From an uncultured Clostridia bacterium (lineage in GTDB: Bacteria; Bacillota; Clostridia; Christensenellales; UBA1242): a stretch of 64,000 nt of DNA. Below the pieces are notes generated by a model, which worked only from the letters and a program-made list of their open reading frames with translations, did no database searches and was not told where the DNA came from. Shown piece after piece: positions 1,549 through 54,382 of the stretch; positions within the stretch are counted from its first letter, which is position 1, and each line of letters starts with the position of its first letter. Where the stretch lies: contig CALWTK010000030.1 of assembly GCA_944384465.1 (NCBI GenBank), positions 1,942 through 65,941 on the forward strand. The letters run 5' to 3'. A program made the translations under genes and the position numbers.

Positions 1549-1581
1549 ACACCCTTCCCTGAATTAAAATTTGTTATGATT

Positions 1582-4790: not shown

Positions 4791-4817
4791 TAACAATCTC
4801 AAAAAAATAGATTCTTA

Positions 4818-4846: not shown

Positions 4847-4865
4847 ATTGACAAAGGAGAAAATT

Positions 4866-6873: not shown

Positions 6874-6980
6874 TAAGCCTTTTTGTTGCAAAAATCAACG
6901 AAATGATATTAATAATACAAAAAATACAATATCTTAATAAATTTTCTATATTTAACACAATTGAATGCTAAGTGATAATA

Positions 6981-9261: not shown

Positions 9262-9410
9262 GTTAATCCTCCTTTATGCTATATAAATAAAAATTCCTCT
9301 TGCCAAGACAAAAGGAATACAACAATCGACATTCTTTTCTCTCCTACACAAGCAACAATGTTTACGCCTTACAGCACTTGTGGTCTTTGGCTAGAATTTT
9401 TATTTAATTG
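9262..9410 (-). promoter_or_regulatory. L10-leader-like 5' UTR with an intrinsic attenuator hairpin
   Basis: A ~147-nt leader lies between the putative promoter and rplJ. The minus strand has a 10-bp hairpin, ATTCCTTTTG-TCTTGG-CAAGAGGAAT (9293-9318), followed by TTTTATTT about 30 nt before the SD. An upstream GC-containing segment (CCAAAGACCACAAGTGCTGTAAGGCGTAAAC) could form the L10(L12)4 binding mimic. Confidence 0.45.
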
Positions 9411-17314: not shown

Positions 17315-18349
17315 ATGAAAAAAATAAAGGACACTATCACTGAAGACACTGTCACGAAGGAAGAGACCACAATGAAGAAGCCTAATTTGATCAAACGCGC
17401 ATTCAGCAGATTGAAAACTGCATTGAAAAATGCAAAAATTTCAAAGAAGATTGCCACTCTTAGTTTGACGACCGCGCTGGTTGTCAGCGGGATCACATTC
17501 GCAGGCTGCTCTAACGACAGCCATAACCCAGGTCCAGGTCCTGGCCCTAACCCAGGCCCGATCGAATCTGGCTATAGTCAAATCATGGACACTGTCTTGA
17601 ATGACGAATATTATACAAGTTTGGTAGACAACTTTACCTATGAAGACAATAGCAGTGCTTACTATGACCCACATCCTTATGGCTTCCTAGAAGATGAAGG
17701 CTACAATATAGATGATATCAAGAATGGCACCCTAAAATGCTACTCCACCTCGTATATGAAAGATGACGGATACTATATCCGCACTATGGTGGAGAACAAA
17801 GCGTCTACCGACTACTACGGCTGCTACATAATTAAATATGACTTGACCGACCAGGAAAAAGATGAATTGGATATGCTGTTTGAAGACGAATATATCCAGA
17901 CTCCACTCTACATCCAAGAGATCTCCAACCAAAAGTCAGCATCCGTCCAGTCCGAAGCATATATCGCTAAAACTGCTTACGAATCAATCCTAAATAGAGT
18001 AAAAGAAGTTAGTGGATATAGTGAAGAAGTTTTAGGCACAAATAATGTTGATATATTATATCTTGGAAATTATGTCGATGGGGCAGAAGGTAGTTGTGAT
18101 ATTCAAATATATGTCAGAAATAGCAATCTAACTATGGGGAGACTAAAAGGCAGAATGGGCACTTGTAATATATCTACAATTGGTAGTATGGGATTTCAAA
18201 ATATAAATGGACGCCAAGTTTTGATAAATCCTACTAACGCTTGGACTTCACCTAGTGATAGTTATGAATCATATGTAAATAGCATAGAAGAAGTTGATTG
18301 TTATAATTGTCAAAACGTTAGCTTGTCTATGGAGTATGAAGTTAAATAA
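17315..18349 (+). CDS. Putative lipoprotein with Pro-Gly linker, function unknown
   Basis: SD AGGAG. Signal region with lipobox ...LVVSGITFAGC|SND, followed by NPGPGPGPNPGP. An alternative start is M20 (17372). Confidence 0.75.
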   Translation: MKKIKDTITEDTVTKEETTMKKPNLIKRAFSRLKTALKNAKISKKIATLSLTTALVVSGITFAGCSNDSHNPGPGPGPNPGPIESGYSQIMDTVLNDEYYTSLVDNFTYEDNSSAYYDPHPYGFLEDEGYNIDDIKNGTLKCYSTSYMKDDGYYIRTMVENKASTDYYGCYIIKYDLTDQEKDELDMLFEDEYIQTPLYIQEISNQKSASVQSEAYIAKTAYESILNRVKEVSGYSEEVLGTNNVDILYLGNYVDGAEGSCDIQIYVRNSNLTMGRLKGRMGTCNISTIGSMGFQNINGRQVLINPTNAWTSPSDSYESYVNSIEEVDCYNCQNVSLSMEYEVK

Positions 18350-18430: not shown

Positions 18431-21400
18431 TCACTCTGTGATGATAGTGATACTACCTGATGTAATATTCCCAACACCCGTATGTTGAAGACTTAGATTT
18501 CCTCCCAGCGTCACTTTGACAGACTCTGTCAGATAAGTCGTTTTACCATTAGGTGAGCCAGAATAGATAGTGCTTTTAGGGATTAGTGTATAGTTACTTT
18601 CCTTCACTGTTACACCATTTTCACCCTCATTAACCCTATAAATTGGCCACAAGGTAAATGACAAATCGCTTGGATTCCCTGTTTCGTTTACATACATATA
18701 TCTAGTATATATGCCATAAGTACGGTTAGATAAATATTTGTTGTAATTATAGTCTACTGTATAATCTCCTTCTGAATTGGCATTCGTTCTCACTTGCTGT
18801 AGATATCCATACATTTCGTTGACTATATAACCTGATTGAAGAACATATATAGTGTCATTGTAGACTCGATAATTATAGCCAACTCGAAACATGGCTCGCT
18901 CTCCCGCATCAAAAGCAGAGACATTAGTGATATAATTATTCGAATTTGCCTCTATCTTATCTATTATATCTTCTATCTTATTTTCATCATCTGCTATTAA
19001 ATTAATTGTCACAATCTTATTTCCTGAAGCATCGTATATTGGCATTTCCCAACTATCATAATCTATTTCTCCTAAAGGAGCGAAGACATAACTAATACCA
19101 TCGTCCTTATAGACCTCATAACCTCCATCGAAATAATAATATGTCACTTCTTGAGAAATTTCAGCATCTCCAAAAAAATCTAGCTTTAAATCGCTATTGC
19201 CATATATTTCTTCTCCTGCATATAAGTCTCCTACTGTATCAGTTGTATAAGGATTAACAAAGCTAGAAGGATAAGCTGTGATTGTAATACTCTCTGGAGT
19301 GGAGGTCAACCCATTTTCGATCAGATCGATATATTCATAGTCTCCGCTGGAGGTAGACTTGCTGAACTGATACCACACGGTAGTCGTCTGAGGGTTGCCT
19401 TCGGCATCGGTGTAGTGATATGGTATTTGAATATAGTTGACGCCATCACTGGTCAATCCAGAAGGATTTTCCACTCTTGAATATTCCGCATATTTCTTAT
19501 TGCTATCTACCTGAGCGCCATTGATTGTATAGTATGCTCCTTTTATATAATCATAACCTAATTTATATCCTCGATTAATTACATTTTCTTCTGTAGAATT
19601 TATATATTTAAATATTTCCTTACTTCGATATTCTGGATCTATATCATTAGAAAGAGACTTTCCGTTGATCGTATATTTGCCACTTTCATACTTCAAATTG
19701 TTATTAGGATCGGTTGCGTCCGGAGATTCTTTAGTTTCGCCTAAAGAATATTCACCGTTCCCTAAATAACTACCATAGGTATAATAATATCCGCCATCCA
19801 TTGTGTACCATGTAGTAGCAGTATCTCCAGATACAACGCCATAAGTGTAATTTTCAGCTGAGAAGAATACTTGAGTGCGCACATAGTCTACTGTCATAGC
19901 CAACACATGCTTGTAGTATACACCATTTCTATAATAATATGTGGAATAACCATCTGTATACTCAGTACCAGTCGAATTGTTTGTGATCGTATATATATAT
20001 TCATAATCCTCGTTAGCAGTGATTGTATAATCCTCACTATTTATAGGCACATAGTGCGAATTTCCATTGTTATCTAAATAGAAATAGTAGTTAGAGTAAT
20101 AGTCGGATGGGCGGACAGAAGAGTATGCAAAATATGTATGAGCATAATCTTCCCCTGTGCCACCACCTTGATAATCATCTTCTAATATAATATAAGCGTC
20201 CAATTGACCTGTCAATTGACCCTTTTCATATAAGACTTGACGAGTGTATTTGGAGGATATGAAACCGAAATTTTGATCAACAACAGAGAAGAATAAGTTA
20301 TCCGCCTTGGCGTTACCAGTATTAATTCCGTTGATCACAAAGATTGCCGCAAATCCCATTAGGGCAAGTCCTTTCGTAACCAACTTCAAAACCTTGATCG
20401 CCATTTTAACCGTCTTCATGAACATACCGACGCCACCCAGCACATAACTAGCAATTTCCGCTGCTGCTGCTCCGGTAAAGATAAGCCACTCCCACCAAGC
20501 AGGAGATTCTTCAGTAATTCTAACTTTATTCAATCTTGCATCGTTGTAACCATATACTTCAAAGATTGAGCCAGAACTTGGCACTTCACTTATATTTGTC
20601 CAATCTGAAGAACCACTAAATCCTGGAATATATCTCATGCTATTGTTGGCGAACAATGTGTTGAATATAAAGTATGCTGTATAACCGCCTGATAAATAAT
20701 TCCTGACACCATACACCACCATACCACCAAATGTTGAATCTGGATTCCCTGGAGTGCCTTTCTTAATTATAACTTCATATGAAGCTTTATTTCCTTCTAT
20801 TGTATTGTATTCTTTCCATACGTTTTCATCTCCGGAACGCTCCGCATATTCAAAATATGTCAATCCTTGTAATTTATTACCATATCTTGTGTCATCATTT
20901 GCATTGATCCAATAGATATCTCCGAAGTCCCCATTTGGGAATATATAATCTTCTTCATCTTTTGGTGTCAAATACTGCTCTGCGTTATCAGAGGAGTACT
21001 TTTCACCTTGAATGTTAGTATACAAACTACCCATACCCATAGCTGAATAGATCTTTGGACTGTCTGCTTCTTCCTCATACACAGTAAAGCATATATAATC
21101 AGGATCAAACCGTTCATCCACTATAGTACCTTTTTCGTTTTCATGTGGTAAGGATGTAGTAGTCAAGCGTAAATTAGCAATAGTGCCCACATGTGTGATA
21201 TTGCTTGCATCATATATCTCTGCTATTGAATCCCATGATGCACCGTTGTTTTCCTCCATAGGAATATTCCTTTGAATACGTTTGAACGCTGTATAATCTT
21301 TGTGCCATCCTTGTGCTGCGCTATTCAATGGATTGGTTGCTTTCACATCATACCAAGATTCTTCCGATGTGCCTGAAATGCTGAAATTATCTAGATTTAT

Positions 21401-24400
21401 ATAATACGCTTGCGCAATTAAATATATTGCGTTATCTGTTTCATCAACTGTAAAAATTGACTGCCCGTCATAATAGTTGCTATTTTCTATGGTATTTACC
21501 GTGAATGCATATTTATGTTCGCCTTTGACAGTTACTTCTGCACCTGAATTACCACTCCTACCTTCTACTTTCAGCATGCCGACCAAGCCACCAAACTCAT
21601 TGACAGCATCTCCGTCAACCGTTATGTTGTAAGAAGAAGACTGCCCAATCTCAGATTTCAGATTGCCTTCCAGTCTACCGATCAGTCCGCCAATATAGTA
21701 TGAGGAATCTGTCTTGAGGGTGATATTCACCTCGCTAGAGCCCGCTCTCAGCGTGTCCGCATCACCTTTTAATTTACCTATCAAGCCACCAACATATATA
21801 CCGACACCTTTTGCCTGAACGGTGATGTTGCCTGAGCCTGCTATCTCGTTTGTGTTGAAGTTTTCTAGAGTGTTCTGCTCCCCGCCGTCGAACACGCCGA
21901 CCACGCCACCGATGTTGTACGCACCGCTGACATTGGTGTCTCCCATCAAGGTTGGCGTCACAATATATCTTGACGTACCGGTTGAACCGCTAGCAGGACC
22001 ACCCTCTAGGTAATAGTAGCCATAGAATGTGCCGACATTGATGCCGAGCTCTGCTTGGATGTCTGCTTTCAAACTATTTGACTCGATATATATTTCACTA
22101 CTGTTGTCAGTATTAGCCGCCAAAGCCACACTGGAAGAAAGTGTACCGATGAACCCACCAAAGCCACTAGTCATATCATCGAATTGGGTCACGACATTTG
22201 ATGTGTCCTCCTCTGAGGTAATGTATTTATAAATATTCGTACTGTTGAAATAGTTAGTGTTATTGGTGTTCACGCTACCCGAAGTAAGACTAATATTGAC
22301 CATATTGTTTTCAATGGTGTTGATAACGCTTGAGCCACTGTAGTCTGATGCCCCTGGAGCAATGATGCCTTCACTAGAACTAGTGATGAATGCATCGTAC
22401 ACGAGGTTGTTTTGAACCCTACCATAAGCGGCAAAACCTATCAAACCGCCCACACTGTTAGGCATAAAATATGTGTTATAAGTTTCTTGAGGGCCTGAAC
22501 TGATCGTATCTTGACGTTTGATGAAATAGATACCTTTGATAATGACATTGTTGTCTTCAGTTCCATTAGCATCAGCGGTTGGCATGACTGCGCAGTTTTT
22601 GACCATCGTAAGGGCATCATTCAACACACCTATCAGTCCGCCCACGTTGGCATTGCCATATACATCAGCATATGACCAAATGGAGTCTACCGTACCAGTC
22701 ACATAACCAAACGCTCCACCTACATTCAATACGCCCGAAATTTGCCCTTCTACAGCAGCGCCTTCACGCAATTTGTAATAAGCACCTGCCTGTGTACTTT
22801 CTGTAGCCACAAATGGAGTGTAAAGAGACTTATCTTTGTCATGAGTGAAATACACTTGACCAGGCGTCAATTGTTCTGTAGCAGCCACCTCTTCATAAAT
22901 GTTATTGACTATGCTGATATTCTCAGCATAACCTATCAAGCCACCGACATTTTGATAGCCTTCTATGTTAGCTGAATTGAAGATGTTGCTCACGTCTACA
23001 GGGGTGCCCGAGTTGTCCGAATTTGTCAACATGCCTACAACTCCACCAACGTTCATTGTCAAAATTGTCGACATCTCACTATTATCCTCTATCGCGAACA
23101 TTTCATTGTCAGTATCTAGCCCCATATATAAATCAGCTGTCGTACTTGTGTTTATATCTAGACGATCATTCACAAATGCGATAATACCTTCATTCGTCAA
23201 GTCGCTCACTTCTGTTATATTGTCAATTTTGCCTGCTACTCCGCCAACATTTCTTACGACTTGAGTCGTTGTATTATTCTCTTTGAAGGTTATATATACA
23301 TTATTGTAGTTCGTTATAGTAAGTTTTTCTTGTTGTTCTTGACCATTCTCATCATTTCCTGCACTGTACAACTCCAACTCACTGGCAGCATAGTGACCAA
23401 ATAGGCCGCCCCAATTCTCTAGATCTCTACCTATATTTTGTTCAACAGCTTTGTAAACTGTAGCATAAGCGTTGTTGTGTCCATCGCCGTCGGTCAAGAA
23501 ATTCCAGTAGCTGTCGTCCTCTGCTGTTTCATCAGGGGCGAAATCAAATATGTTCTCAATATTGCTCGACACATACCCTATAGCTCCGCCGACATTATCA
23601 GCGCCAGAAAGCTGTACAGAATAGTTCATGTTGGAAATATCTATTTTAACGTAACCAGAATCGTATCTACCAATCAAACCGCCGACATTGTTACCATCAC
23701 TTACTATCATATTTGGCTCAAAGCTGAAAGATGTATCAAAGGTCAATTCGAAATTGGCATTTTGTCGACCAATCAACAGACCAAACCCTTCGTTTATATT
23801 ACCTTCAGATGACTGACCATCATTGGTAACCACGCTAACAAGAATTGATTTAGAATCAGAGGTGGTGTCAGTATCTATTTGCTTATAAGCAAAACCATCG
23901 ACTGTCAATGTGGCATCACTAGAACCGTTTGTATCTCCTAACTTAGCTGCCAATAATCCAAAATAATTGTTGGATTGATTCATTTTGCTCACTACTTGCA
24001 TACTGTTGCCTGAATCGATCACACAATCAGTAAACGTTATATCATGACGGACCTCTGCTATCAGCCCACCAAAGCTATTTGTATGAAGCATATCAGGCAC
24101 GATGACATCAATATTCGAAATTGATTTGTCACCGCTACTCGACGCTAGTCCGACTATTCCGCCTAGATTAGCATTCACTTCTGTTGTACCCTCTGGTTGT
24201 AGACTAAATAAGTATACAGTCGAATTTAGATTGTTACTGCCTTCAACACCTATTATAGTCCCACCAGTCATTTCACCAATTAGACCACCGCCATAGTGTA
24301 CATGCGTGAATCTTACATACAAATTATTTGTCGTTTGGTTGCTTGGCTCGGTAAATATTATTGTTCCACCATCCATTTTACCTGCAAGTAAACCTGCTCT

Positions 24401-30400: not shown

Positions 30401-33400
30401 GCCGTTGGTGGTAGATTTTATTTGTGCACCTGTAGAATATGGATTTGTTGAGTTGTCTGTATCCGCTCCTTTTACATAGCTATACGAAATTTTACCACTA
30501 TTTTCACCAACAAATCCAGCTGTCATGCTGTATCTGGTAGATAGCCCTTCTGGTGCGGTAGAATAGTTGACTAAGCTGGTGTTTGATACAAATGAACTTG
30601 CAATCGTTCCCGTATTTACTCCCACGAATCCGCCTGTAACTGCCACAAAGCCTTGTCCACCTTCGCTAGCGGTCGTGTCTCCTACTATGAATTGCAATGC
30701 ACCCCCCGTCACATAGCTTGTGCTCTCGCTATATTCATCCGCAGTTATGCGTGTATAACCATCTTTGCCTACACGTGAATTGGTGATTATTCCACTGTTG
30801 TTTCCTACCAATCCACCGAATGTCACATTGACATCACTGCTGTTGTCTACAACAATGTTGATAGTTTTTGTAGACGCAGACAAATTCATCACGTCACAGT
30901 TATAGATCAAAGCACCATTGTTGTTCGCGACAAGTCCACCGAATGTGATATCCGTGATGTCGTTCTGTGTCAGAAGTAATTTTCCATTATTTACAGTATT
31001 AAATTCGCTATAATCTACAATGATATTTTTCAAAATCGTAGATTGTGTATTGCCGTTAGCATCTTGATAGGTTGAGATGTTGCCAAATAGGCCATATTCT
31101 GTGCGGTCAGTGGATATAGCAAAACTTCTGATCTTGATCACTCTGTTGTTGCCATCAAAGCTTGCGATATTCACACTGATTGGAACGAGATTATCAATCG
31201 TTATGTCGTCCATCAAAATATAGTCAAGCCCTTCACCTAGCAGACATTCTCCGGTATCAGGGTCAAATATCTGATCAACCGAATAGATAGGAATTGCATG
31301 TTCTTCTGTTGTGCTGACATTTATATTCAAAGTGAAACTGAAATTCATAGTGTATGACAGTGAATTGCTCGACATCAAACCGAACTTCAACTCGTACTTG
31401 TCTCCATTGAGGATATATCCATAATGAACTTCAAAATTGATCGTGCTGCTAAAGCCTTCCGTCCCTCTTATTGTCAACCTGTCATCCACAATATTCACCA
31501 CAAATTCTGGATGAGCATTGTTGTTGCTAAAGTAGATGACTTCACCATTATCATTTGTGTAATAGAATAGTTCAGCAAGATTTTCGGCGCCTATATCGGA
31601 CACCATTTTTTCATATATCTCACTAGATAGATTGTAATTTGGGTTTTGTGTCGTGAAATTGAAATCGAAGCCAACTGTTCTATCAACTGCCGTGTTCAAC
31701 ACGCCATTCGCAAGTCCGTTCAAATATGCTGAATCTGCACTCACTATATAAGGTATAGGATAGAATACCAAACTACCCTCTTCTTCACTGGTAACAAGTG
31801 AATCTTCTGTCGCCAAAGTGAGCGCTACATTCATCTTGAACGCAACAGGGATATCCGAGCTGACATTCAACATTGCAGTCATAGTGTATGAACCATCATT
31901 ATTTTCGACAACATCACTGTAGTCGTTCAACAGTCTAAAGCTCAAATAGTCACCAATCCTATATTCACGCCCGTATTCGTCATCATCTTCATCAATATTT
32001 ATTAAAATACCCTTGGTCGCACCATATTCGTATTTTGTGCTGTTTTCATCTAGAATCCACTCGAATGAGATGTTAGGATTTTGACTGAATTGATAACCAT
32101 AAATTCTAATGCTGATTTCGTTGTTGTATGTGTCTTCTTGAATCAAATATTCACTATCGCCGTCATCGCTGACACCTAGGTAATATCCATCATAGCTAAG
32201 TGACGCACCTGGCAAATATTGAGTCAACAATGTCTTTGTCACCGTTCTCACACTGTTGTTTGATGTCTCGACAGTGAGGGTCGCTCTGATAGTTGATGAC
32301 AAGCCGCTGAACATATCCATCTGAGTGTGGATATATATTCTTCCGTCATAATGATAGTTGTTATTTTCATCTATGTACGAAACTTTCCTCAAAACGATGC
32401 CACCATCAATCTGTTCGTTGCTTGGATAGATAGTTTGATATGTATTAGTGGAAGCATTGTATACCAATTGCTCAAATATTATAGACACTTCCCTATTCAA
32501 AGATGGAACAAACAATGTAGAACTTGTAAGGGTCGCAGAAACAATATTAGAGTAACTAGGCTCTAAATATACCAGCATCACGCCACCATATCCACCAGGA
32601 GAAATGATAGATGTTTCGACGTTGTTGCTGCTTATTAAATTGGTATAACTTGTACTAGGAGTGATACTTGTTGCTGTATAATTTTCGATCCTAACTGTAG
32701 ACAACTCGGTCGGAGTCAAGATCAAATTTATGCTGTCTCTAACATTCGGATTATTTGTAGAGTAGACAATGATTTCTAGCGTGATATTGCTTTCAATATA
32801 CCTATATTCAAATTCGTTCTTCAGACTCAAAGCGATGTTATAAGTATACCCCGTGATCCTGTCCTCTGTACGAATAGGTGTATACATAAACGTATAGTCA
32901 AACAAATCTACTATACTTTCTACTCTAGCATTTGCCAACAAGCTATTTAATTCGTCCTGACCATCGACGACATTCATTGTAAGTGAAATACTATCTTTAT
33001 CCACTTCTGTCAAGACAATGGTATTATCAGAAGAAGTGTAATCTACCTGTCCGCCTATGTCATCATCACGAACATAGCCGGTAGATAAATTCGCATCGAA
33101 AGCCATATTTGCATTTGTCTGCATTTTATAATCTGACCCGTCTATTTCTAGGTCGGTCGCAGACTTGTACACAATCACACGCAAACTGGTCGTCTTCAAC
33201 TCTAGCATCTGGTCTTGATTGTCTATTTGTGGATAAATAGTCTCGCCAAAATATTGTGTCAGATTCAGCATCAGTCTGAATGTCAATATCTCGCTGACTC
33301 TATCTCCCTCAAAATCATTGTTAGCGACACTGATCATGACACCATTCAATGAATTTGTATCTTCCACTGCCAAGACTGAACTTGTATTTTCTCTCACCAC

Positions 33401-36400
33401 TTCTAGCTCAACATATTGATTAATATTGGCATCAAAGATAGTGGCAAATTCCAAGTTGTCTTTAATATTTGTCGCATCCACATTCACCAATACAGAGTTT
33501 GCTCCAGTGTATGTGTATAATTCATATACTGCATTTTCTTCGTTTATTTCATATATCGAATTTGAAGTTAAAACTAATTCATTCAACCCCAGTTGAGTAT
33601 AGAAAATCACATATTCTTCCAAAGCAGAATTGAATGTTGAATAGCATCTTACAACTATAGGATTGTTCCCACTCACACCTGTGAATATGATTTGTCCGTT
33701 TGAGATGTATGCGTACGCTGACCCACGAACTATCTCATAACTCACTCCACCTTGTGAATTTGTTGGTAAGACTTCTAGGTTGATCAAACCATTTTTATCT
33801 TCGTTTTCACCCGCTGTATTTATCAAATTATATGTATTATGCCTGATATTATCTAATGGATTGTCCACACTGCTATAGTAGTTGATAATTGTCGTGCTTG
33901 TAACATTATAATCCCCCACATTAGGCTCTTCATCAATATATACAGAGCCAATAGAGATCACATAATCTTCATCAATATCTGCGCTGATATCAGTAGGTCG
34001 AATTACCATAATAGGATCTAAATTCGTGCCAGCTACTAGATATGGGAAATAGAAATTGAAGCCATAAAATGTGATATAATTCAAATCAGATTGAATTTTC
34101 CAATTTGTAGTATCATTCAACCAAGCGAGGACAAAAGTCTCCCACTCTTCAGTCTTAGTAGATGTCAAAGTATAATATGTATTATTGATATTTACTATAG
34201 TAGATGTGTTTTCCACTAATTGTTCTACATCATCCACTTCATATAATAAATAGGTATCCAATATATCAATATAGTTTTCTGTGAGAGTATAATATATCTT
34301 TGATGAGTCATATTCTGTATCGGTAGTTATCGCTAGATTTCCATCAGCGTCCGCTTCATATAAACTAACTCTGTCTTGATCCCATGTCTCATAATCAAAT
34401 ACAAAATAAGTTTGTGTTTCATCAAATTGGTTGTCCACACTTTCATCAAGTTTTGTATATACTCCATCGGTATCGATATACAACCCGCTAGCGACAAACT
34501 CATCGAAATTTTCTTCGCTCACTTCCTGCTCGAGCATGTAATCAGACAACGTTTTTGTGAAAGGCACGCTCATCGATACTTCAGTGCGTGTAATGTAGTC
34601 CGCTATGGACAGTTCATTCCAACCTATATGATAAAAATATACTGTTTCATCATCATAGATCACTGAATAATGATTTCCGTTTGTTGGACTAGCATTGATA
34701 TAGTCAGATAATAATGAAATGTAATTGTTTACTCGGCCTATATAATAAGTGTTATTTTCATTGCTGCTTGGACTTGTCAAATATATCTCGTTGGTTTGAT
34801 TTTCATATGCATTGATATTAGCGTTGACAAAAGACATGTCAATATTCGTGCCATTTAGCGAATATACAAGCCCTGCCACTCTATTAGATCTACTATTGAA
34901 AGTATAGAATATCTCATCATTATTAGTGGTGATAAAGTTTTCTATGATTGCGGTGTTCAAAGCATCCCTTTGCGATGACACAACAATACCAGCCACAATA
35001 TTGTCCCCACTCAAACTACCATTAGCAGATAGTGCATTTGAGAAGGTAACATTAGCTGACATGAAACGCACTTCGGTGATGATCGTAGCAATTGAATAGC
35101 CAACGACACCTGCAACATCCAGCCCAGAATTTAACGCACTGATATCCAACCCTAATAGTGCCACATTTTCTATACTATTTTGATATGTGATACTGCTTTC
35201 GCTAGAATTTGAAACTGATTGCCCAGCGACCCCCGCGATATAACCCAAAGCGTTTGTTATACTTGGAGAGATTCCATTCGTGATAGACAATCTTCCGCCT
35301 AAAATTATGTTGTGAATAGTCCCAGTATTCACGCCAGCCACACCACCAACATAATAATTACTGCCCACTTGTGCTGTGCTTGTGTTTACAATAGTTATAT
35401 CTACAATTATTGTATAACTGATATTGTTTAGATCAGATTTTCCAGCATAACCACCAATAATCTCGCCATTGTTGGCCCCCGCGACTGAACCAATATTATG
35501 ATCGGAGGATGAAGAAGATGTGATTTCTAGTCTAGAACTATAGATCACATTTGATGTGGTCAAATCTATATATCCATTGTTTATACCTACTACTCCACCA
35601 AAATTGATGTCTACATTTATTCTATCATAACTAAAAATTGTATTAGACGAATTCGTAGAGTTTATGTAAACGTTTACTCCCGAGATGGTCCCGTTGTTTA
35701 TACCAGCTATCGCACCTATATTTAGACTTCCATTGTCTGCTGAAGCGGTTATGCCACTAGTATTAAACGACACATTGATATCAAGGTCACTTACATCCCC
35801 GCCTTCACCAATTCTTGCAAACAATGCTGAGTAATAATTTTCACCATCTTCCACACTGGTAGACAAATTCAAAGTGATTTGATATCTAGATGTAGAAATA
35901 TTTGTTCCGTTAGAAGCAAGATTTTGTACCGTACCGCTGAGACTGCCAGTAAATTCCGATATAACTTCACCACTCAAACCTATTGGTGAAAAATCTGTAG
36001 AACTATCAATGGTTATATTGTTCCTCAGGACATAATTAGCATCCATGTCATTGATGATATTTTTCAAGTCATCCACGGATTGAATTGTATATCTATTCTG
36101 GATAGATCCATCACTTATTGATATAAATATCGAATAACTCGTTGAATATGTCCCCAACTCATCACTATATGAGTCTTTTGTGACCAAGGTCAGCATGAAT
36201 AGCCCGCCACCCATGCTCTTGCTCGCAGATATCGCAATTGTATGATTGATATTATCTATATTGACATTCAATCTTTCATTGCTAATTTGAGACAATATTA
36301 TTTTATTATTTTCATCAACTGCTATGCTTCCATCTTCATTTTGCTGTACTCTATAAAGGATATAATCCAAATCGCCAAATCTCATATTGTTTGACTCGTT

Positions 36401-39325
36401 GGTGTCATAATAAGCCTGCGCGTTGAACGTAGCAGTGTCGCTACCGCCATATGCCACATCTATAAATGACATATAGATATATTGACTATCTATACCATTA
36501 GAAACAATTTCATCACCCCAAATAGTGATGCCTTTCGCTGGATCATAATCAGCGAATCGTATCGTTGTACTTGTAGATACATTTGACTCTTCTCCAAATC
36601 TAAAGGCGACTAAACTTATTGTGATTTCATTATATTGAGAATTAGAAGAAAGAAGTCTCACTTGAATATTTCCCTGCAGGATATCTTCTCCAAGGCGGGA
36701 ACTTATTATAGTATTGTTTGTAAGTGTTATCTCACTGTCTCCATCCATCAGCACGACTTGGACACTTTCGTCAATATTGTCTATCATGACGCGAAGTTGT
36801 GATGCGTGATCTATCACTCTTTCACCAATGCCCGTAGCCGCATCCCCCGTACTGAACACAACATTTGTTGACGCGCTGGCGTTGTTAGACGCGTACGAAT
36901 TGAACGAAATATTGGAAACAGCTGTCTCTTCAAAATATTGATTGATATATACAATTTGATTAGGAGTGGCATTGATTGAGATGTTCGCGATCGGATCATA
37001 TACCGCTAACTCTATCATCAAAACTTGTTCAACTGCGGTGATCAAATTGTCCACCATAGCATAGTAGCGCACAGTGATGTTCAAAACTTGTGTGTAAGAG
37101 CCTATTATACCCATCACGCTGAATTCGTTGTTGGAAATTTTGTTGAATTCTACCGCATTGGTATTGAATGCGCCAGTGTTGTAATCTAGATTAGTAGCCA
37201 CCGAAATGTCTGTGATGGCATTAGCAATAGGAGTGGACGAATTAGATACATATCCTAATACTTCAAAGTCTACATTCCTATTTTTGACAATCGCAAAATT
37301 TGCATGTCCGTTATCCACGTCAATCTCGTTTGCATTGGTGCTGGTCGTCTGTATTATCAACCTATCATTGTTTACTAGATATACACTGCTAGCTGTAAAC
37401 TCTGTACCAACACCTACAGTATCATCTCCTGCCAAAACGCGTATTAAACCAGTTTCCACCGAAGAAGTGGCAAGTATACCAACTTCATAAATGTTATAAT
37501 TCCCCGTTGGTGAAACATAGATCGTCCTGACCGTACTATCTGACAAATTGATTGTGCTAGAATTGTTCAAGAACTTGATATTGCTGTTGTTGGAATTTAT
37601 AGTTATTGAAGACGTGTCCAAAGTCGCGCCACTATAATCAACTCGCACATAAAAATTCGTGTTGGCATGTGCATTGATATACAGATCTCCATTATCGATA
37701 TTGTTCGTTATACTGCTATCCGCATAGACGGACAAACTATTCGCAGTCACCACTTTAGATATAGTATAGGCAATTTCTACCCATTCTGTTGCCACATCCG
37801 AGTTCTCGAATCTATCAGGAGTAGACTGCGCCCTGATATAAATCAGTTGTGACGCTGAAGCATTTTGACTCAAGCGCAAATATAAAGTCTCTCCGCTTCT
37901 CACTCTATATTGATTGTTGCCTAAATTCTCTAGACTGACCCCGGAGACAATAACATTGCTGTTTGCTTCTATATAAATATAGTCATTCGTATTGGCATCG
38001 GTAGGGATGGTCAACAACCTTAATTCTAGCCCTGCGTATGTAGAGCTCGTCGTCCCATAGATGATCCCTTGCGCCGTGCCGTTCTCTGGGATCTCATCAT
38101 TGATGGAAATGTTGCTAGGCAGGACACTTTTGATAATATCTATAGTCTTTTCGTATACAGGGACCCCGGTCGAGTTGAACAACAACCCTTCTATCTCTAG
38201 AGCAAAAGTAAGTGTGTTGCTTGCAATGGTATTGTTAGTGGCAATGACTCTATAGTGCAAGTCATCTATTGCCTGCACAATCAAACCATTATAACCTTCG
38301 CTCATTTGAGAAAGATCATATTTGATCCCATCAATATATATTGCGACATTGTATGAGATTGGATCCGCATTGGTCATCACATCATTTTTATAGATTGAAT
38401 TGAAGTCTGTCAAATCCACTGTGAATTCTGTGCTCGCATATACTGAATCTCTATATAATGTAACGACCTCATTTATGTATTCCGAGTTTATATCATTGGT
38501 ATAGTACACAACTGGCGTGTATTCCTGAGTGTCCACCAAGTAGACATCAAAGTCAGCATAGATATTCTCATTAAATAATGACGTTGCCCTAATCTTTGCC
38601 ACATATTCCTGTGCACGCACTGTGAAATCTTGACTCAACTGCAAAACTCCGCCATCGCCAATTGTTATATACCTTTGCGCATATGTTTGATTTTGACTCT
38701 CAACGTACGCTCTCTCTTGATTCACATCAGCATAATAGCCAATTGACATTACTTGATAACTCACGCCCGTCTGATTGGTCTGCCCTAAAGGTAAATATGT
38801 AAGATTTGATATATTTAACAAGTTCAACATCCCGCCAACAGCGACTGCTGGTTTGATAGATGTATCGACTTCAATGCTAGTCAAACTTCTGTACACATTT
38901 AGATCAATCGAAACTTGTCTACCCGAATTCGTTTCATAAGATCTTAATCCTGTCTGCACATTCCCTGTGATGTCTAGCCTAAAGACTTGATTTTGTCCAA
39001 CTGTAGCAGAAGAGAAATTTAACCCATTGCTGTCGCCTGTTTTAGTCACTATAATGTCGTCAATGTATTTAGCCTTCACATTTTTGATTTCCACTTTTAT
39101 AAAGATTGACCCAACCCCAGATTCTTCGTCAATCTGAAGCATATCATTTACCCCACCATAATTTGCAAAAATACCATGGTTACCATCGTACCATTCACTA
39201 GCATCTTCGCTATATGCATAAGTGATATTGAATTCTAGATCATCATATCTTCCACCACATGCTGAAAGCACTCCGCACATGACGAATAAGAATAATGCTG
39301 TAATCACGCTAAATACTTTTTTCAT
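18431..39325 (-). CDS. 6964-aa giant surface lipoprotein with multiple GLUG beta-helix cassettes, a C-proximal TM hairpin and a ~630-aa C-terminal domain
   Basis: Single 20,895-nt ORF with SD GAGGGG. Lipobox MKKVFSVITALFLFVMCGVLSAC|GG. The first ~1000 aa have a beta-rich, Ig-like character. After that come many (V/I/A)GG(L/I/F/V)(V/I)G repeats. No LPXTG. Confidence 0.85.
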   Translation of the reverse strand: MKKVFSVITALFLFVMCGVLSACGGRYDDLEFNITYAYSEDASEWYDGNHGIFANYGGVNDMLQIDEESGVGSIFIKVEIKNVKAKYIDDIIVTKTGDSNGLNFSSATVGQNQVFRLDITGNVQTGLRSYETNSGRQVSIDLNVYRSLTSIEVDTSIKPAVAVGGMLNLLNISNLTYLPLGQTNQTGVSYQVMSIGYYADVNQERAYVESQNQTYAQRYITIGDGGVLQLSQDFTVRAQEYVAKIRATSLFNENIYADFDVYLVDTQEYTPVVYYTNDINSEYINEVVTLYRDSVYASTEFTVDLTDFNSIYKNDVMTNADPISYNVAIYIDGIKYDLSQMSEGYNGLIVQAIDDLHYRVIATNNTIASNTLTFALEIEGLLFNSTGVPVYEKTIDIIKSVLPSNISINDEIPENGTAQGIIYGTTSSTYAGLELRLLTIPTDANTNDYIYIEANSNVIVSGVSLENLGNNQYRVRSGETLYLRLSQNASASQLIYIRAQSTPDRFENSDVATEWVEIAYTISKVVTANSLSVYADSSITNNIDNGDLYINAHANTNFYVRVDYSGATLDTSSITINSNNSNIKFLNNSSTINLSDSTVRTIYVSPTGNYNIYEVGILATSSVETGLIRVLAGDDTVGVGTEFTASSVYLVNNDRLIIQTTSTNANEIDVDNGHANFAIVKNRNVDFEVLGYVSNSSTPIANAITDISVATNLDYNTGAFNTNAVEFNKISNNEFSVMGIIGSYTQVLNITVRYYAMVDNLITAVEQVLMIELAVYDPIANISINATPNQIVYINQYFEETAVSNISFNSYASNNASASTNVVFSTGDAATGIGERVIDHASQLRVMIDNIDESVQVVLMDGDSEITLTNNTIISSRLGEDILQGNIQVRLLSSNSQYNEITISLVAFRFGEESNVSTSTTIRFADYDPAKGITIWGDEIVSNGIDSQYIYMSFIDVAYGGSDTATFNAQAYYDTNESNNMRFGDLDYILYRVQQNEDGSIAVDENNKIILSQISNERLNVNIDNINHTIAISASKSMGGGLFMLTLVTKDSYSDELGTYSTSYSIFISISDGSIQNRYTIQSVDDLKNIINDMDANYVLRNNITIDSSTDFSPIGLSGEVISEFTGSLSGTVQNLASNGTNISTSRYQITLNLSTSVEDGENYYSALFARIGEGGDVSDLDINVSFNTSGITASADNGSLNIGAIAGINNGTISGVNVYINSTNSSNTIFSYDRINVDINFGGVVGINNGYIDLTTSNVIYSSRLEITSSSSSDHNIGSVAGANNGEIIGGYAGKSDLNNISYTIIVDITIVNTSTAQVGSNYYVGGVAGVNTGTIHNIILGGRLSITNGISPSITNALGYIAGVAGQSVSNSSESSITYQNSIENVALLGLDISALNSGLDVAGVVGYSIATIITEVRFMSANVTFSNALSANGSLSGDNIVAGIVVSSQRDALNTAIIENFITTNNDEIFYTFNSRSNRVAGLVYSLNGTNIDMSFVNANINAYENQTNEIYLTSPSSNENNTYYIGRVNNYISLLSDYINASPTNGNHYSVIYDDETVYFYHIGWNELSIADYITRTEVSMSVPFTKTLSDYMLEQEVSEENFDEFVASGLYIDTDGVYTKLDESVDNQFDETQTYFVFDYETWDQDRVSLYEADADGNLAITTDTEYDSSKIYYTLTENYIDILDTYLLYEVDDVEQLVENTSTIVNINNTYYTLTSTKTEEWETFVLAWLNDTTNWKIQSDLNYITFYGFNFYFPYLVAGTNLDPIMVIRPTDISADIDEDYVISIGSVYIDEEPNVGDYNVTSTTIINYYSSVDNPLDNIRHNTYNLINTAGENEDKNGLINLEVLPTNSQGGVSYEIVRGSAYAYISNGQIIFTGVSGNNPIVVRCYSTFNSALEEYVIFYTQLGLNELVLTSNSIYEINEENAVYELYTYTGANSVLVNVDATNIKDNLEFATIFDANINQYVELEVVRENTSSVLAVEDTNSLNGVMISVANNDFEGDRVSEILTFRLMLNLTQYFGETIYPQIDNQDQMLELKTTSLRVIVYKSATDLEIDGSDYKMQTNANMAFDANLSTGYVRDDDIGGQVDYTSSDNTIVLTEVDKDSISLTMNVVDGQDELNSLLANARVESIVDLFDYTFMYTPIRTEDRITGYTYNIALSLKNEFEYRYIESNITLEIIVYSTNNPNVRDSINLILTPTELSTVRIENYTATSITPSTSYTNLISSNNVETSIISPGGYGGVMLVYLEPSYSNIVSATLTSSTLFVPSLNREVSIIFEQLVYNASTNTYQTIYPSNEQIDGGIVLRKVSYIDENNNYHYDGRIYIHTQMDMFSGLSSTIRATLTVETSNNSVRTVTKTLLTQYLPGASLSYDGYYLGVSDDGDSEYLIQEDTYNNEISIRIYGYQFSQNPNISFEWILDENSTKYEYGATKGILINIDEDDDEYGREYRIGDYLSFRLLNDYSDVVENNDGSYTMTAMLNVSSDIPVAFKMNVALTLATEDSLVTSEEEGSLVFYPIPYIVSADSAYLNGLANGVLNTAVDRTVGFDFNFTTQNPNYNLSSEIYEKMVSDIGAENLAELFYYTNDNGEVIYFSNNNAHPEFVVNIVDDRLTIRGTEGFSSTINFEVHYGYILNGDKYELKFGLMSSNSLSYTMNFSFTLNINVSTTEEHAIPIYSVDQIFDPDTGECLLGEGLDYILMDDITIDNLVPISVNIASFDGNNRVIKIRSFAISTDRTEYGLFGNISTYQDANGNTQSTILKNIIVDYSEFNTVNNGKLLLTQNDITDITFGGLVANNNGALIYNCDVMNLSASTKTINIVVDNSSDVNVTFGGLVGNNSGIITNSRVGKDGYTRITADEYSESTSYVTGGALQFIVGDTTASEGGQGFVAVTGGFVGVNTGTIASSFVSNTSLVNYSTAPEGLSTRYSMTAGFVGENSGKISYSYVKGADTDNSTNPYSTGAQIKSTTNGNVAGFVYLNSGEINNSYANTVLVSDSAYVAGFVYNNAASGSISESYAACTLNGVATENDASEQPFVGVSNNNELLSYGTLENTYYLVNEDDDFIVRSEEGKDQAVGFNTDNFADPDALTGFVFINSNSRTEREQGVWSYYNADNSYRLLPELNTANDIAYSYRYLVGQEDEEYVYSNAVSYALGSANNPYIIRSVEEYNDIFLSGGTQNSMTGYVRFINNIDFASDETAIQTRVNYTLGDANNISVTSIEGNGMTISGIFLDVANATESSIGLFSEIENAYVKNLNLEFASTPGFSSVRVAYSGGLAGKINNSVIINVDLDGGSTTVTGNNFAGGLAGIISGNSLIYGIDSNLSVKAVNTDINNYYMYYNEADFNTMKAIGALSFNGAYDDYLEQLSYAGGIAGVIDIQERTNVNFNLSYITINGNEMYTKTDEGNILADYAGGIAGYAGRDTNALKLKYNVGTTNLITGQFAVGGIYAVGLGDLTASQVTAEEDEQYEYDTALGGYILDLEDSTSSATASVDTQNSGNLNLLESYKYGGGLVGIGIQMNIDSCYSKAGFMVGSTVGGLIGCSIISNVSYSYAVPYVNIDSAYLEYAGGLFGSAYGVRNSTISRNEEVSEYVAYVNQILGITNEDNDIQFTFSTLLLDNSMLHTQHETDNGEFVNINYDYISPNYGQLEDNNTGYITSNNNAAFSYVFAGIVNNYAMLDGESIVQHANDSRASEVNLSQLYDLEDIEHTATFNNVFSGWSTEYWSLNSDKYFPLLLNDNTENYYIIDDVEDFYVLINNPDGNYKIVEDIDLSSWCANNSSNFVFNIDFTGILIGEKENNEIPVLSGLSVNTVDAGDAGLFRSTNDATIRNIAFNWSNKYSRDGNTYSIQLNSNIGMIGAVSADDTQSLFSNLTVNVEADSLVGTSSSSSISGFGGIVANAQGSNIMNCTFVGSVTSYLQSTDAIYFGGLVGRATMYVTSESEDENMSIMNSSVGRNKTNVNFELTISSNSTGEVYIGGAVGYAEETTISSIRVGHYSYTSNRRINISVNLNDCMTNNYVGGLLGRGSETQVSSCDVLTNINVYGTERTEGDGTNTTTRMNIIGGLIGQYVLSSESSININSSNTESYITIGNSEGTQTVINNLYVSTGVGYVVSNLATVEIKQCVFVGDINTISYTTTTGNVSTENEYDNGLINVYSGGAVAFASNSTNSYSELSIDEVMVTTNIFIGSTTAKTVGTSVLYAGGLVGQGYNVDITNSATTGRIVPITDKYSDTTKINIGGMIGQANSVDVRAAYSLTSIVADGVANDVIQGIGNNTFNVNALFGALALETNTVTDLYYSSDFALFPEDSGLGTNLPAYTLVFTSLWRESRDNYFNSANNYWAELNETGNNLPFIASLELQLIHYGVISNSSGSYAYYYGGSMNPILIDAATMNSGVFDFGTYEDSYTYFILSSNIDNNNNAIEFSGVLNGILIAGDTTYTVGGIHSSATDGGYAYGLISEVADHSAISNLHVRVDADHIFSSLQGSNGFMTGQNEGVIFNSSVEGQGVNLSGQFMGVLVGRNNGLISYSYSNIEIVSTEAALGGITYINQGKILSCYFTGYINNTSTDASGSTTTTSAAGIIGQIITGNSYVYNCYMAGVIESVGGNSFANGTFTPSDSGSNNFIDSLANNESSNVTYNNDGEIITVVSCVSTADLMSASDLEGNWHVSTVETTTSSGNEQYYFNLAANSYGYNYLYPFYRINKISGSDLSTNIDNTHQLYTGRGFNDINNAFINKSDTGYQNILDDVSSNDFFKIPHLGVLSAVQGISTVITTTEGGVAEVRNTYLNYMVIYDIGNDLSSNLTWTAVGVAGNTSDGFYSDAAHQFNGLFITHKYYNNPTINTLNIDNACTISGLHTNGLFTNINSAYFTYIKFGNMSMLENSGVLGVNVGTNNEDIEQTTQIITIANVTINGELSADQENTSEPYLGGLFGTITEYAGTIKIYNLNTSYTDTTDEKIAELNLVGDSTTTRAGLLAGKMDGGTIIFTEPSNQTTNNLYVRFTHVHYGGGLIGEMTGGTIIGVEGSNNLNSTVYLFSLQPEGTTEVNANLGGIVGLASSSGDKSISNIDVIVPDMLHTNSFGGLIAEVRHDITFTDCVIDSGNSMQVVSKMNQSNNYFGLLAAKLGDTNGSSDATLTVDGFAYKQIDTDTTSDSKSILVSVVTNDGQSSEGNINEGFGLLIGRQNANFELTFDTSFSFEPNMIVSDGNNVGGLIGRYDSGYVKIDISNMNYSVQLSGADNVGGAIGYVSSNIENIFDFAPDETAEDDSYWNFLTDGDGHNNAYATVYKAVEQNIGRDLENWGGLFGHYAASELELYSAGNDENGQEQQEKLTITNYNNVYITFKENNTTTQVVRNVGGVAGKIDNITEVSDLTNEGIIAFVNDRLDINTSTTADLYMGLDTDNEMFAIEDNSEMSTILTMNVGGVVGMLTNSDNSGTPVDVSNIFNSANIEGYQNVGGLIGYAENISIVNNIYEEVAATEQLTPGQVYFTHDKDKSLYTPFVATESTQAGAYYKLREGAAVEGQISGVLNVGGAFGYVTGTVDSIWSYADVYGNANVGGLIGVLNDALTMVKNCAVMPTADANGTEDNNVIIKGIYFIKRQDTISSGPQETYNTYFMPNSVGGLIGFAAYGRVQNNLVYDAFITSSSEGIIAPGASDYSGSSVINTIENNMVNISLTSGSVNTNNTNYFNSTNIYKYITSEEDTSNVVTQFDDMTSGFGGFIGTLSSSVALAANTDNSSEIYIESNSLKADIQAELGINVGTFYGYYYLEGGPASGSTGTSRYIVTPTLMGDTNVSGAYNIGGVVGVFDGGEQNTLENFNTNEIAGSGNITVQAKGVGIYVGGLIGKLKGDADTLRAGSSEVNITLKTDSSYYIGGLIGRLEGNLKSEIGQSSSYNITVDGDAVNEFGGLVGMLKVEGRSGNSGAEVTVKGEHKYAFTVNTIENSNYYDGQSIFTVDETDNAIYLIAQAYYINLDNFSISGTSEESWYDVKATNPLNSAAQGWHKDYTAFKRIQRNIPMEENNGASWDSIAEIYDASNITHVGTIANLRLTTTSLPHENEKGTIVDERFDPDYICFTVYEEEADSPKIYSAMGMGSLYTNIQGEKYSSDNAEQYLTPKDEEDYIFPNGDFGDIYWINANDDTRYGNKLQGLTYFEYAERSGDENVWKEYNTIEGNKASYEVIIKKGTPGNPDSTFGGMVVYGVRNYLSGGYTAYFIFNTLFANNSMRYIPGFSGSSDWTNISEVPSSGSIFEVYGYNDARLNKVRITEESPAWWEWLIFTGAAAAEIASYVLGGVGMFMKTVKMAIKVLKLVTKGLALMGFAAIFVINGINTGNAKADNLFFSVVDQNFGFISSKYTRQVLYEKGQLTGQLDAYIILEDDYQGGGTGEDYAHTYFAYSSVRPSDYYSNYYFYLDNNGNSHYVPINSEDYTITANEDYEYIYTITNNSTGTEYTDGYSTYYYRNGVYYKHVLAMTVDYVRTQVFFSAENYTYGVVSGDTATTWYTMDGGYYYTYGSYLGNGEYSLGETKESPDATDPNNNLKYESGKYTINGKSLSNDIDPEYRSKEIFKYINSTEENVINRGYKLGYDYIKGAYYTINGAQVDSNKKYAEYSRVENPSGLTSDGVNYIQIPYHYTDAEGNPQTTTVWYQFSKSTSSGDYEYIDLIENGLTSTPESITITAYPSSFVNPYTTDTVGDLYAGEEIYGNSDLKLDFFGDAEISQEVTYYYFDGGYEVYKDDGISYVFAPLGEIDYDSWEMPIYDASGNKIVTINLIADDENKIEDIIDKIEANSNNYITNVSAFDAGERAMFRVGYNYRVYNDTIYVLQSGYIVNEMYGYLQQVRTNANSEGDYTVDYNYNKYLSNRTYGIYTRYMYVNETGNPSDLSFTLWPIYRVNEGENGVTVKESNYTLIPKSTIYSGSPNGKTTYLTESVKVTLGGNLSLQHTGVGNITSGSITIITE

Positions 39326-39371
39326 ATCCCCTCACTTTAATTTGTTCTATTCTGCAAATATTATTAATTTA

Positions 39372-39401
39372 ATTATATAAAAATATCACGCGATAAGTCA
39401 A
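39372..39401 (-). promoter_or_regulatory. Promoter of the 6964-aa gene
   Basis: Minus strand reads TTGACT (39396-39401), an 18-nt spacer, then TATAAT (39372-39377). Confidence 0.5.
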
Positions 39402-49099: not shown

Positions 49100-49127
49100 A
49101 ATAAAAATATAAAGCCACGCGGGCTTT
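49100..49127 (-). terminator. Intrinsic terminator closing the SipW operon
   Basis: Minus strand: AAAGCC-CGCGT-GGCTTT followed by ATATTTTTATT. It overlaps the stop of the 271-aa ORF. Confidence 0.55.
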
Positions 49128-49941: not shown

Positions 49942-49957
49942 AAACTACCTCCTTTTA

Positions 49958-51291: not shown

Positions 51292-51305
51292 ATCCTTTCC
51301 CTTCT

Positions 51306-54371: not shown

Positions 54372-54382
54372 TTTCTCCCCTT

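Follow-up and report, generated by a model that had tools for sequence, protein, structure and literature searches.

A giant putative lipoprotein with beta-helix cassettes from the genome-reduced gut lineage UBA1242: an intact 20.9-kb gene with a probable role in attachment

Is an open reading frame (ORF) of 20.9 kb in the DNA of an uncultured bacterium a real gene, and if so what might a protein of this size do for the cell? The ORF lies in a stretch of 64,000 nucleotides from an uncultured Clostridia bacterium (contig CALWTK010000030.1 of assembly GCA_944384465.1; the whole stretch is referred to below as the window). It runs from ATG to stop at 18431..39325 on the minus strand and encodes 6964 amino acids (aa). 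Positions are those of the window, and features belong to the minus strand unless a plus strand is indicated. The ORF is a real, intact gene and not an assembly artefact. We are highly confident that its product is a membrane-anchored surface protein. We further consider it probable, at about 0.6 and judging from sequence, that it works as a giant attachment fibre specific to its lineage, with the putative role of tethering the cell either to a microbial partner or to the surface of a host or of mucus.

The ORF listing and translation confirmed the uninterrupted 6964-aa frame reported in a preliminary description of this DNA, the sole stop codon being terminal. The same description warned that the repeat content of the gene made it a place where assembly could go wrong, and this concern was not borne out. 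Direct repeats within the gene reach 37 nt at most (68-78% identity), and a single tandem array measures 47 nt. Comparison of the protein with itself by blastp revealed no internal repeats at E<1e-3, and likewise no match to the other giant proteins of the window at 1e-3. The cassettes described below are thus repeats of structure only and the DNA is non-repetitive, so that the worry about repeat collapse does not apply. An alternative, Mollicutes-like genetic code, suggested by the name 'Onthoplasma' and by low GC content, was considered and rejected: the frame is open under translation table 11, and NCBI taxonomy places Onthoplasma in Christensenellales (in GTDB it belongs to the family UBA1242).

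When 1.84 billion representative proteins were searched exhaustively with phmmer, two orthologs of full length came to light, each from an independent assembly: P0012 (6998 aa), with 80% overall identity to the window protein, and P0014 (6936 aa), with 39%. Both are collinear with the window protein end to end. The number of GG motifs is kept (35 in each ortholog vs 36 in the window protein), the lipobox and the membrane hairpin are common to all three, and gene order at both loci is the same as in the window. Collinear orthologs of at least 4450 aa were found in five GTDB genomes, where single tblastn high-scoring segment pairs span aa ~2480-6960 at 33-39% identity; in three of the five the ORF is open up to the edge of the 10-kb flank. 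The ratio of nonsynonymous to synonymous substitution rates (dN/dS) was calculated by the Nei-Gojobori method in segments of 200 codons, with figures given only where dS was estimable. Against the closer ortholog, L010, the ratio was 0.04-0.5 in 33 of 35 segments, and dS was saturated in the other two. Values well below 1 along the ORF indicate that essentially its entire length is maintained as coding sequence.

It could be argued that the ORF arose in assembly, or that it belongs to a decaying pseudogene and merely looks like one reading frame, since the orthologs in L001, L008 and L012 appear split into several called genes. Inspection of the breaks located 10-N scaffold gaps at these points (L001 5913-5922, 6547-6556 and 7168-7177; L008 6351-6360; L012 ~2080-2089). 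A single further frame change, in L008 near 10260, is not accounted for by such a gap, and with this exception pseudogenisation was rejected as the cause of the splits. The L012 sequence comes from an independent scaffold and is identical to the window across 4.5 kb save its N gap. Together with the two independent full-length orthologs, the non-repetitive DNA and the low dN/dS wherever dS could be estimated, this makes an artefact or a pseudogene extremely improbable.

The gene is preceded by expression signals that the preliminary description had also pointed out. A sigma-70-like promoter, TTGACT-18-TATAAT (39401..39372), matches the consensus at 11 of 12 positions and is the top-scoring site in the region. 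It is followed after ~40 nt by a Shine-Dalgarno-like GAGGGG read from the sequence at 39328-39333, 2 nt ahead of the start codon, which gives the order TTGACT-18 nt-TATAAT, ~40 nt, GAGGGG-AT-ATG. Promoter-like sites are frequent in the surrounding AT-rich DNA (20 observed vs 14.2 expected in a promoter scan). In an alignment of four orthologous upstream regions (window, L010, L011 and L008) GAGGGG-N2-ATG is invariant, and TTGACT and TATAAT are both kept in L010 and in the distant L011. The 2-nt distance between GAGGGG and ATG is unusually short, and the same short distance is kept in the orthologs. The L011 and L008 proteins are 31-39% identical to the giant protein (39% for L011). Retention of GAGGGG in three orthologous loci and of the hexamers in two, at such divergence, shows that the expression signals are conserved family-wide, which is a stronger argument than their fit to the consensus.

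The first 23 residues (39257..39325) form a signal peptide with a lipobox, VLSAC/GG (the slash follows the cysteine), as had been proposed. The N-terminus, MKKVFSVITALFLFVMCGVLSAC/GG, fits the consensus [LVI][ASTVI][GAS]C with the cysteine at position 23, and all parts of a bacterial lipoprotein signal were found in MKK-VFSVITALFLFVMCGV-LSAC/GG: an n-region, an h-region and the lipobox itself. The lipobox is retained in P0012 (VFSAC/S), P0014 (FFTAC/G) and L008 (FVTAC/K). Neither lgt nor lspA is among the genes of the 64-kb window. The mature product has a mass of 757 kDa and is very acidic, with an isoelectric point (pI) of 4.1; it is enriched in N, S, G, T, I and Y and contains only 20 cysteines.

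The best-resolved part of the protein is its most conserved core, identified from identity, dN/dS and structural modelling, which consists of beta-helix cassettes 2 and 3 and their linker (aa ~2683-3600; 28526..31279). Between aa 2700 and 3550 identity to the orthologs is 50-64% vs ~30% elsewhere, and dN/dS is 0.04-0.07. An AlphaFold2 model of aa 2690-3600, built with eight homologs, had a predicted local distance difference test score (pLDDT) of 67.9 and a predicted template modelling score of 0.63. The model contains runs of strands 3-4 residues long, and the invariant residues of the core are structural rung residues (AGFV..N.G.I). When the model was compared with PDB by Foldseek, exclusively right-handed parallel beta-helices were retrieved. 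The best probability (1.00, TMt 0.47) belonged to 3n6z, a 'putative IgA1 protease' of B. ovatus, followed by the streptococcal and Gemella IgA1 proteases 6xjb, 6xja and 7uvk (0.80-0.84); matches of lower probability included polysaccharide lyases of family 6 (PL6), Ag43, Fap2, a serine-rich repeat protein (SRRP) and tailspikes.

Direct sequence searches were less informative. No Pfam or NCBIfam family scored above threshold on either half of the protein or on any of ten 760-aa tiles. Sub-threshold matches were confined to the tile aa 3451-4210, with 17.0 bits for Glug (cutoff 20.5, E 0.0078) and 16.3 bits for Peptidase_M26_N (cutoff 27.7). Sequence searches of PDB with both halves and with profiles of the N-terminus, central region, core and C-terminus were empty. 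Four of the eight homologs of aa 2690-3600, on the other hand, match PF07581 Glug, with a best E of 2.3e-7. The fold match and this transitive homology support the beta-helix/GLUG reading despite the failure of the giant protein itself to reach the Pfam threshold. On the strength of the model it is thus supported that the core adopts a right-handed beta-helix like that of 3n6z and the IgA1 protease N-terminal domain.

The turn motif typical of this fold extends far beyond the core. The sequence xGG[LIV]xG occurs 36 times in the protein vs 0.7 +/- 0.9 times in shuffled sequences, so that the GLUG-like turns noted previously are present in large excess. The motifs fall into clusters at aa ~1150-1480, 2760-3050, 3240-3600, 3870-4260, 4900-5130 and 5200-5920. 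These clusters, between aa ~1080 and 5950, amount to at least 6-8 cassettes, in line with the earlier estimate of at least five. Cassette 1 (aa ~1078-1500; 34826..36094) is delimited by GG motifs, and cassette 4 (aa ~3748-4290; 26456..28084) has eight of them. Cassette 5 (aa ~4387-4640; 25406..26167) is weaker and is proposed from degenerate GG-type turns. Cassettes 6-8 (aa ~4850-5950; 21476..24778) carry 16 GG motifs and mark the start of the fast-diverging part of the protein. The cassette heads share the pattern 'NPYxIxSxEEL...DIDL'. The cassettes have diverged so strongly from one another that comparison of their profiles by hhalign linked one pair only (aa 1072-1372 with aa 3742-4076, probability 94%).

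Two long regions are without GLUG motifs. The N-terminal region (aa 24-1075; 36101..39256) is 31-34% identical to its counterparts in L008 and P0014. The preliminary description took the first ~1000 residues for stacked Ig-like domains, a view that found no support: no Pfam or PDB match to aa 24-1075 was obtained with the single sequence or with a four-sequence profile, and hhalign against the Big_2 domain encoded in the window itself gave a probability of 0.3% and was rejected as evidence. A word-indexed homolog search with the N-terminal 1100 aa found nothing, and with the C-terminus it found two fragments only. The central region (aa ~1501-2682; 31280..34825), which holds an acidic, Tyr-rich stretch, has no motif clusters and was without match in Pfam, PDB and ortholog-profile searches.

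The arrangement of the C-terminal part differs from that of the cassettes. A conserved membrane-adjacent module (aa ~5950-6260; 20546..21478) was recognised by invariant columns in alignment A1; it contains the motifs NYYDG...QRNIP...DY(I/L)CFT(V/I)YE...GS(I/L)F.V.G, and identity at aa 5900-6050 is 50-65%. It is followed by two hydrophobic segments that form a predicted membrane hairpin with a basic loop (aa ~6277-6344; 20294..20497). In the AlphaFold2 model aa 6277-6297 and 6318-6344 are helical, at low pLDDT. The Lys-rich loop has a charge of +4/0 (net +4) and its flanks are near neutral. The hairpin pattern is present in six orthologs, whose sequences there are very different, with Lys/Arg-rich loops of ~15-60 aa. 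By the positive-inside rule the basic loop predicts an out-in-out hairpin, which would return the final 620 aa to the outside of the cell.

These last residues constitute an orphan Tyr-rich, beta-rich domain (aa ~6345-6964; 18434..20293), mosaic and hypervariable, which ends in ...GSITIITE. Its AlphaFold2 pLDDT is 70-90 across aa ~6380-6850; no credible relative was found by Foldseek (noise only), in PDB or by sequence. In the library of 1.84 billion proteins 32 match the C-terminal 1015 aa, and the giant protein appears on this evidence to belong to a narrow family. A homolog on a 2.5-kb contig, P0002 (L002 185..2056), stops ~40 aa past the conserved post-hairpin motif and is followed by a Peptidase_S66 gene. 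The 620-aa domain may be absent in some lineages, or the L002 contig may be chimeric.

Divergence is distributed very unevenly along the chain. Identity to P0012 is 90-97% over aa 1-3900 and 52-74% over aa 4900-6100; it falls to 35-52% at aa 6100-6500 and 6700-6964, around an island of 76-85% at aa 6500-6700. In the most divergent patches, part of the C-terminal domain among them, synonymous sites are saturated (proportion of synonymous differences 0.69-0.76), while dS is 0.3-0.7 elsewhere. This saturation suggests that the segments are older alleles imported by recombination, rather than products of relaxed constraint alone. Across genera, the protein is ~35% identical to its orthologs in L003 and L006, where the neighbouring RecD2 and L10 are 79-80% identical. 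Patterns of this kind are typical of surface proteins that are exposed and driven by interaction.

The related loci are titled Candidatus Onthoplasma sp., uncultured Christensenellaceae and uncultured Clostridia (rabbit). From the 79-80% identity of the window RecD2 and ribosomal protein L10 to their counterparts in L006 and L003 we infer that the window comes from a close relative of that lineage. Metagenome-assembled genomes of UBA1242/Onthoplasma measure 0.76-0.92 Mb and lack most biosynthesis and standard transporters while keeping sporulation genes, and the predicted way of life of the family is obligate symbiosis with, or parasitism on, other cells (PMC12306168). In a genome of less than 1 Mb the giant gene makes up roughly 2-3% of the DNA, and in the window three ORFs for giant secreted proteins (20.9, 7.0 and 8.9 kb) account for 57% of the bases. 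The earlier suggestion that the protein is a dominant surface feature is probably right. The preliminary description had overlooked the conserved module beside the membrane, the hairpin and the orphan domain that follow it, the mosaic nature of the hypervariable C-terminal third, and the fact that the host lineage is genome-reduced.

How might such a protein work? The Sec signal peptide and lipobox read from the sequence would direct export and lipidation at Cys23. The ectodomain of ~6250 aa would be elongated and acidic. In it, beta-rich domains without repeats would be combined with at least 6-8 cassettes that form right-handed beta-helices of the GLUG / IgA1-protease-N type, two of these cassettes (2 and 3) modelled and the rest proposed by extension. 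Hydrophobicity, the positive-inside rule and conservation in orthologs suggest that the hairpin at aa ~6277-6344, with its Lys-rich cytoplasmic loop, is a second membrane anchor. Its first helix would stop transfer of the chain, and with the second helix export would resume, carrying the C-terminal 620-aa Tyr-rich domain to the outside. The constrained core (aa 2700-3550) may be a structural or functional scaffold, and the recombining, fast-diverging C-terminal third may be the part under selection for specificity or evasion.

Several points weigh against an attachment fibre of this design. No domain with a known ligand was detected in the protein. Beta-helices occur in enzymes too, and PL6 lyases gave the best Foldseek E-value. 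With 17.0 bits vs the required 20.5 for Glug, the protein does not reach the score thresholds of PF07581/PF05342. The AlphaFold2 models are of moderate quality (pLDDT 68 and 58), the hairpin topology is a prediction only, with an AlphaFold2 confidence of ~30 in that part, and lineage placement is by the 79-80% identity of two neighbour proteins to named metagenome-assembled genomes, not by a phylogeny. A more far-reaching form of the attachment hypothesis, to which we give a fairly low probability, would see here a partner-dependent attachment organelle like that of Patescibacteria, independently evolved in Clostridia (UBA1242). In this scheme a doubly anchored megadalton fibre would have its partner or host set by the recombining, membrane-proximal C-terminal third and the orphan domain, and the basic loop may couple binding outside to the cell interior.

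Other functions have to be weighed against attachment. If the protein is tied to the membrane at both ends, its 6250-aa ectodomain would be a loop rather than a free tip. It could then be a structural envelope or coat protein, forming a protective or spacing layer in the manner of an S-layer or glycocalyx, and not a specific adhesin. The pI of 4.1, the strong purifying selection over most of the length and the presence of several other genes for giant secreted proteins nearby fit this idea. A single non-repetitive chain of 757 kDa would however be an odd lattice unit, no SLH or other S-layer domains were found in the Pfam and NCBIfam scans, and the mosaic hypervariable C-terminal third suggests selection driven by interaction; we consider a coat function unlikely. 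Somewhat less likely in our view is that one or more cassettes, especially the core at aa 2700-3550, are enzymes (polysaccharide lyases, glycosidases or non-M26 proteases) carried on a long stalk and degrading host glycans or the cell wall of a partner. The core is indeed the most constrained part of the protein. Among its Foldseek matches are GH55, GH87, pectate lyases and tailspike depolymerases as well as PL6 alginate lyases, which gave the best E-value (9.8e-4). One report connects giant proteins of predatory Omnitrophota with the degradation of cell walls (bioRxiv 10.1101/2023.11.21.568195). Structural similarity to the lyases is nevertheless very low (TM-scores 0.12-0.15, with root-mean-square deviations of 27-28 Å), and the high-probability matches are to non-catalytic GLUG domains, those of 3n6z and the IgA1 protease N-terminal domain. 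In addition, the invariant residues of the core are structural, HExxH is absent and no catalytic family of Pfam or NCBIfam was matched.

The marked variability of the C-terminal region, 35-52% identical between close relatives as opposed to 90-97% in the N-terminal half, would also be expected of a contact-dependent effector resembling polymorphic toxins, in which a variable C-terminal module would be displayed on the stalk, and the hairpin would enter a target membrane to deliver or expose the C-terminal domain. The saturated patches suggestive of imported alleles, the position of the hydrophobic hairpin ahead of the variable domain and the much shorter tail of P0002 after the hairpin could be read in the same way. 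Nevertheless, divergence is graded and mosaic from aa ~4900 on, with no sharp boundary of a module swap, and all orthologs share a homologous C-terminal domain. No domain of a toxin or pre-toxin could be recognised, the downstream neighbour is convergent, so that there is no co-oriented immunity-like gene, and the basic loop fits insertion into the own membrane of the cell. An effector role is therefore very unlikely. The attachment fibre remains the reading that we prefer.

Comparison with known systems places the protein outside named families. In structure it is closest to the GLUG beta-helix domains of IgA1 proteases and 3n6z. The right-handed beta-helix and the xGG(L/I/V)xG turns are common to the giant protein and the GLUG domain (PF07581 / Peptidase_M26_N; IgA1 proteases/ZmpB, Bacteroides BACOVA_03286; 3n6z, 6xjb, 7uvk), and both homology to Glug-bearing proteins and the repeated turn were found. 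Unlike the GLUG and IgA1 protease proteins, it has at least 6-8 cassettes per chain and lipoprotein plus hairpin anchoring, with no LPXTG and no G5. It is not an M26 IgA1-specific metalloprotease of the ZmpA/B/C type, as HExxH occurs nowhere in the 6964 aa and Peptidase_M26_C was not matched. Autotransporter and two-partner secretion (TPS) adhesins (Ag43, Fap2, EtpA, FHA/CdiA) also have long right-handed beta-helix stalks for cell-cell or cell-host adhesion. The Ag43/Fap2 type belongs to diderms and is exported through a beta-barrel or TpsB, whereas the giant protein has a Sec signal and lipobox and comes from Bacillota; structural agreement is low (TM-scores 0.10-0.14), and sequence homology is absent. 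The L. reuteri SRRP (PDB 5nxk), with its beta-solenoid binding region, was among the Foldseek matches, but the giant protein is without serine-rich repeats.

The preliminary description assigned the protein to the class of Ebh (S. aureus), SiiE (Salmonella) and LapA (Pseudomonas). Size (5000-10000 aa) and a presumed adhesive surface role are indeed shared, and this part of the comparison stands; the characteristic domains and signals are missing. Ebh has alpha-helical FIVAR/GA repeats and a YSIRK signal, and also a C-terminal membrane-spanning segment. In the giant protein YSIRK and the FIVAR, GA and DUF1542 domains of Pfam are absent, and the AlphaFold2 models are beta-rich. SiiE and LapA are adhesins of diderms with BIg/RTX repeats, secreted by the type I secretion system (T1SS) and encoded by highly repetitive DNA. 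Of the features of such RTX/T1SS adhesins (LapA, SiiE, MpIBP), no Pfam Big or RTX match, no T1SS signal and no internal repeats of DNA or protein were found; a single GGxGxD match was judged to be due to chance, and the neighbours of the gene are housekeeping genes, not T1SS genes. Sortase-anchored proteins and SRRPs are no closer, as LPx[TSA][GAN] occurs nowhere in the protein and there are no serine-rich repeat arrays. Features of polymorphic toxins or contact-dependent inhibition systems were likewise absent: no toxin family was matched, the gene immediately downstream is convergent and the C-terminal domain is not replaced between orthologs. The protein is likened to giant fibrous adhesins in presumed role and is a member of no named family.

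By analogy, the closest biological counterparts appear to be Giant1-5 of Apilactobacillus kunkeei, as far as the available text on them goes. These are described there as surface proteins of 3000-8000 aa that occupy 6% of a 1.5-Mb genome, encoded by clustered genes, built with beta-solenoid modules and diversified by intragenic recombination (PMC12863079). The likeness would lie in very large extracellular proteins of small-genome Bacillota, in the several percent of the genome devoted to them and in the clustering of giant genes. In the same text Giant1-4 have one N-terminal solenoid domain, whereas in the protein studied here cassettes are distributed over the chain; homology at the sequence level was not detected, and a lipobox and a C-terminal hairpin are not among the features given there for Giant1-5 (PMC12863079). 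The giant surface proteins of ultra-small or partner-dependent lineages (Omnitrophota and CPR/Patescibacteria), as far as their available descriptions go, follow the same ecological logic, in which a reduced genome and predicted dependence on other cells go together with heavy investment in very long secreted proteins (PMC12306168; bioRxiv 10.1101/2023.11.21.568195). They differ in phylum and domain make-up, and in both cases the link to attachment is an inferred one.

The genes around the giant one include further candidates for surface proteins. A 344-aa putative lipoprotein (17315..18349, plus strand; ITFAGC/SND followed by a PGPGPGPNPGP linker) is encoded convergently with the giant gene. 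Its gene occupies the same position, on the opposite strand and downstream of the giant gene, in L001, L003-L006, L010 and L011; the protein evolves fast (31-43% identity), has no Pfam match and may be a functional partner of the giant protein. Further downstream, 9806..16825 encodes a 2339-aa protein with an N-terminal signal anchor, six Flg_new (Listeria-Bacteroides) repeats, Flg_new_2 and a weak match to Peptidase_M26_N. This third giant surface protein of the neighbourhood has orthologs of ~39% identity in L003 and L004. A SpoIIID-like gene lies directly upstream of the divergent neighbour of the giant gene.

An operon-like block at 49126..63277 starts with a gene for a 2964-aa putative lipoprotein (...VFIFGC/NNT); a Big_2 domain lies at aa 40-110 of this protein, and its C-terminus bears GLUG-like xGGIVG motifs. 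The rest of the block encodes an S26/SipW-like signal peptidase (213 aa), an 807-aa protein, two 223-aa proteins and a 271-aa protein. The N-termini of the 223-aa proteins resemble SipW/TasA-type signals (...SYFTSS and ...SAWFTSG), and the entire block is syntenic in L011. It may encode a secreted fibre system relying on a dedicated signal peptidase. Elsewhere in the window, 5149..6873 (plus strand) encodes a 574-aa leucine-rich-repeat protein of the BspA type (LRR_5, E 2e-25), likely a surface or interaction protein, and an ORF of at least 521 aa at 1..1563, with an N-terminal signal anchor (MKKFLVVLVAIIVVVCLGM...), extends past the left edge. A ribosomal protein L10 leader (Rfam RF00557, 64 bits) at 9279..9408 precedes rplJ (8776..9261); it was the sole Rfam match across the window, and no tRNA genes were found.

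Giant 'hypothetical' surface proteins are not rare in metagenome-assembled genomes and are already known as a kind. What is new here is a well-validated, lineage-restricted giant beta-helix surface protein with orphan terminal domains. It adds a family of ~30 members to the catalogue of giant bacterial proteins, with ~7000 residues outside Pfam coverage and an unusual topology of lipobox plus hairpin. UBA1242/Onthoplasma are widespread, uncultured, genome-reduced residents of the gut. A gene that takes up ~2-3% of a genome of less than 1 Mb, is intact in several lineages and is under purifying selection along almost its whole length is a prime candidate for their interface with a partner or host. 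The gene offers a target for antibodies, fluorescence in situ hybridisation, cryo-electron tomography and partner pull-downs, the last of which could aid cultivation. It thus provides a testable handle on how genome-reduced gut cells contact their partners.

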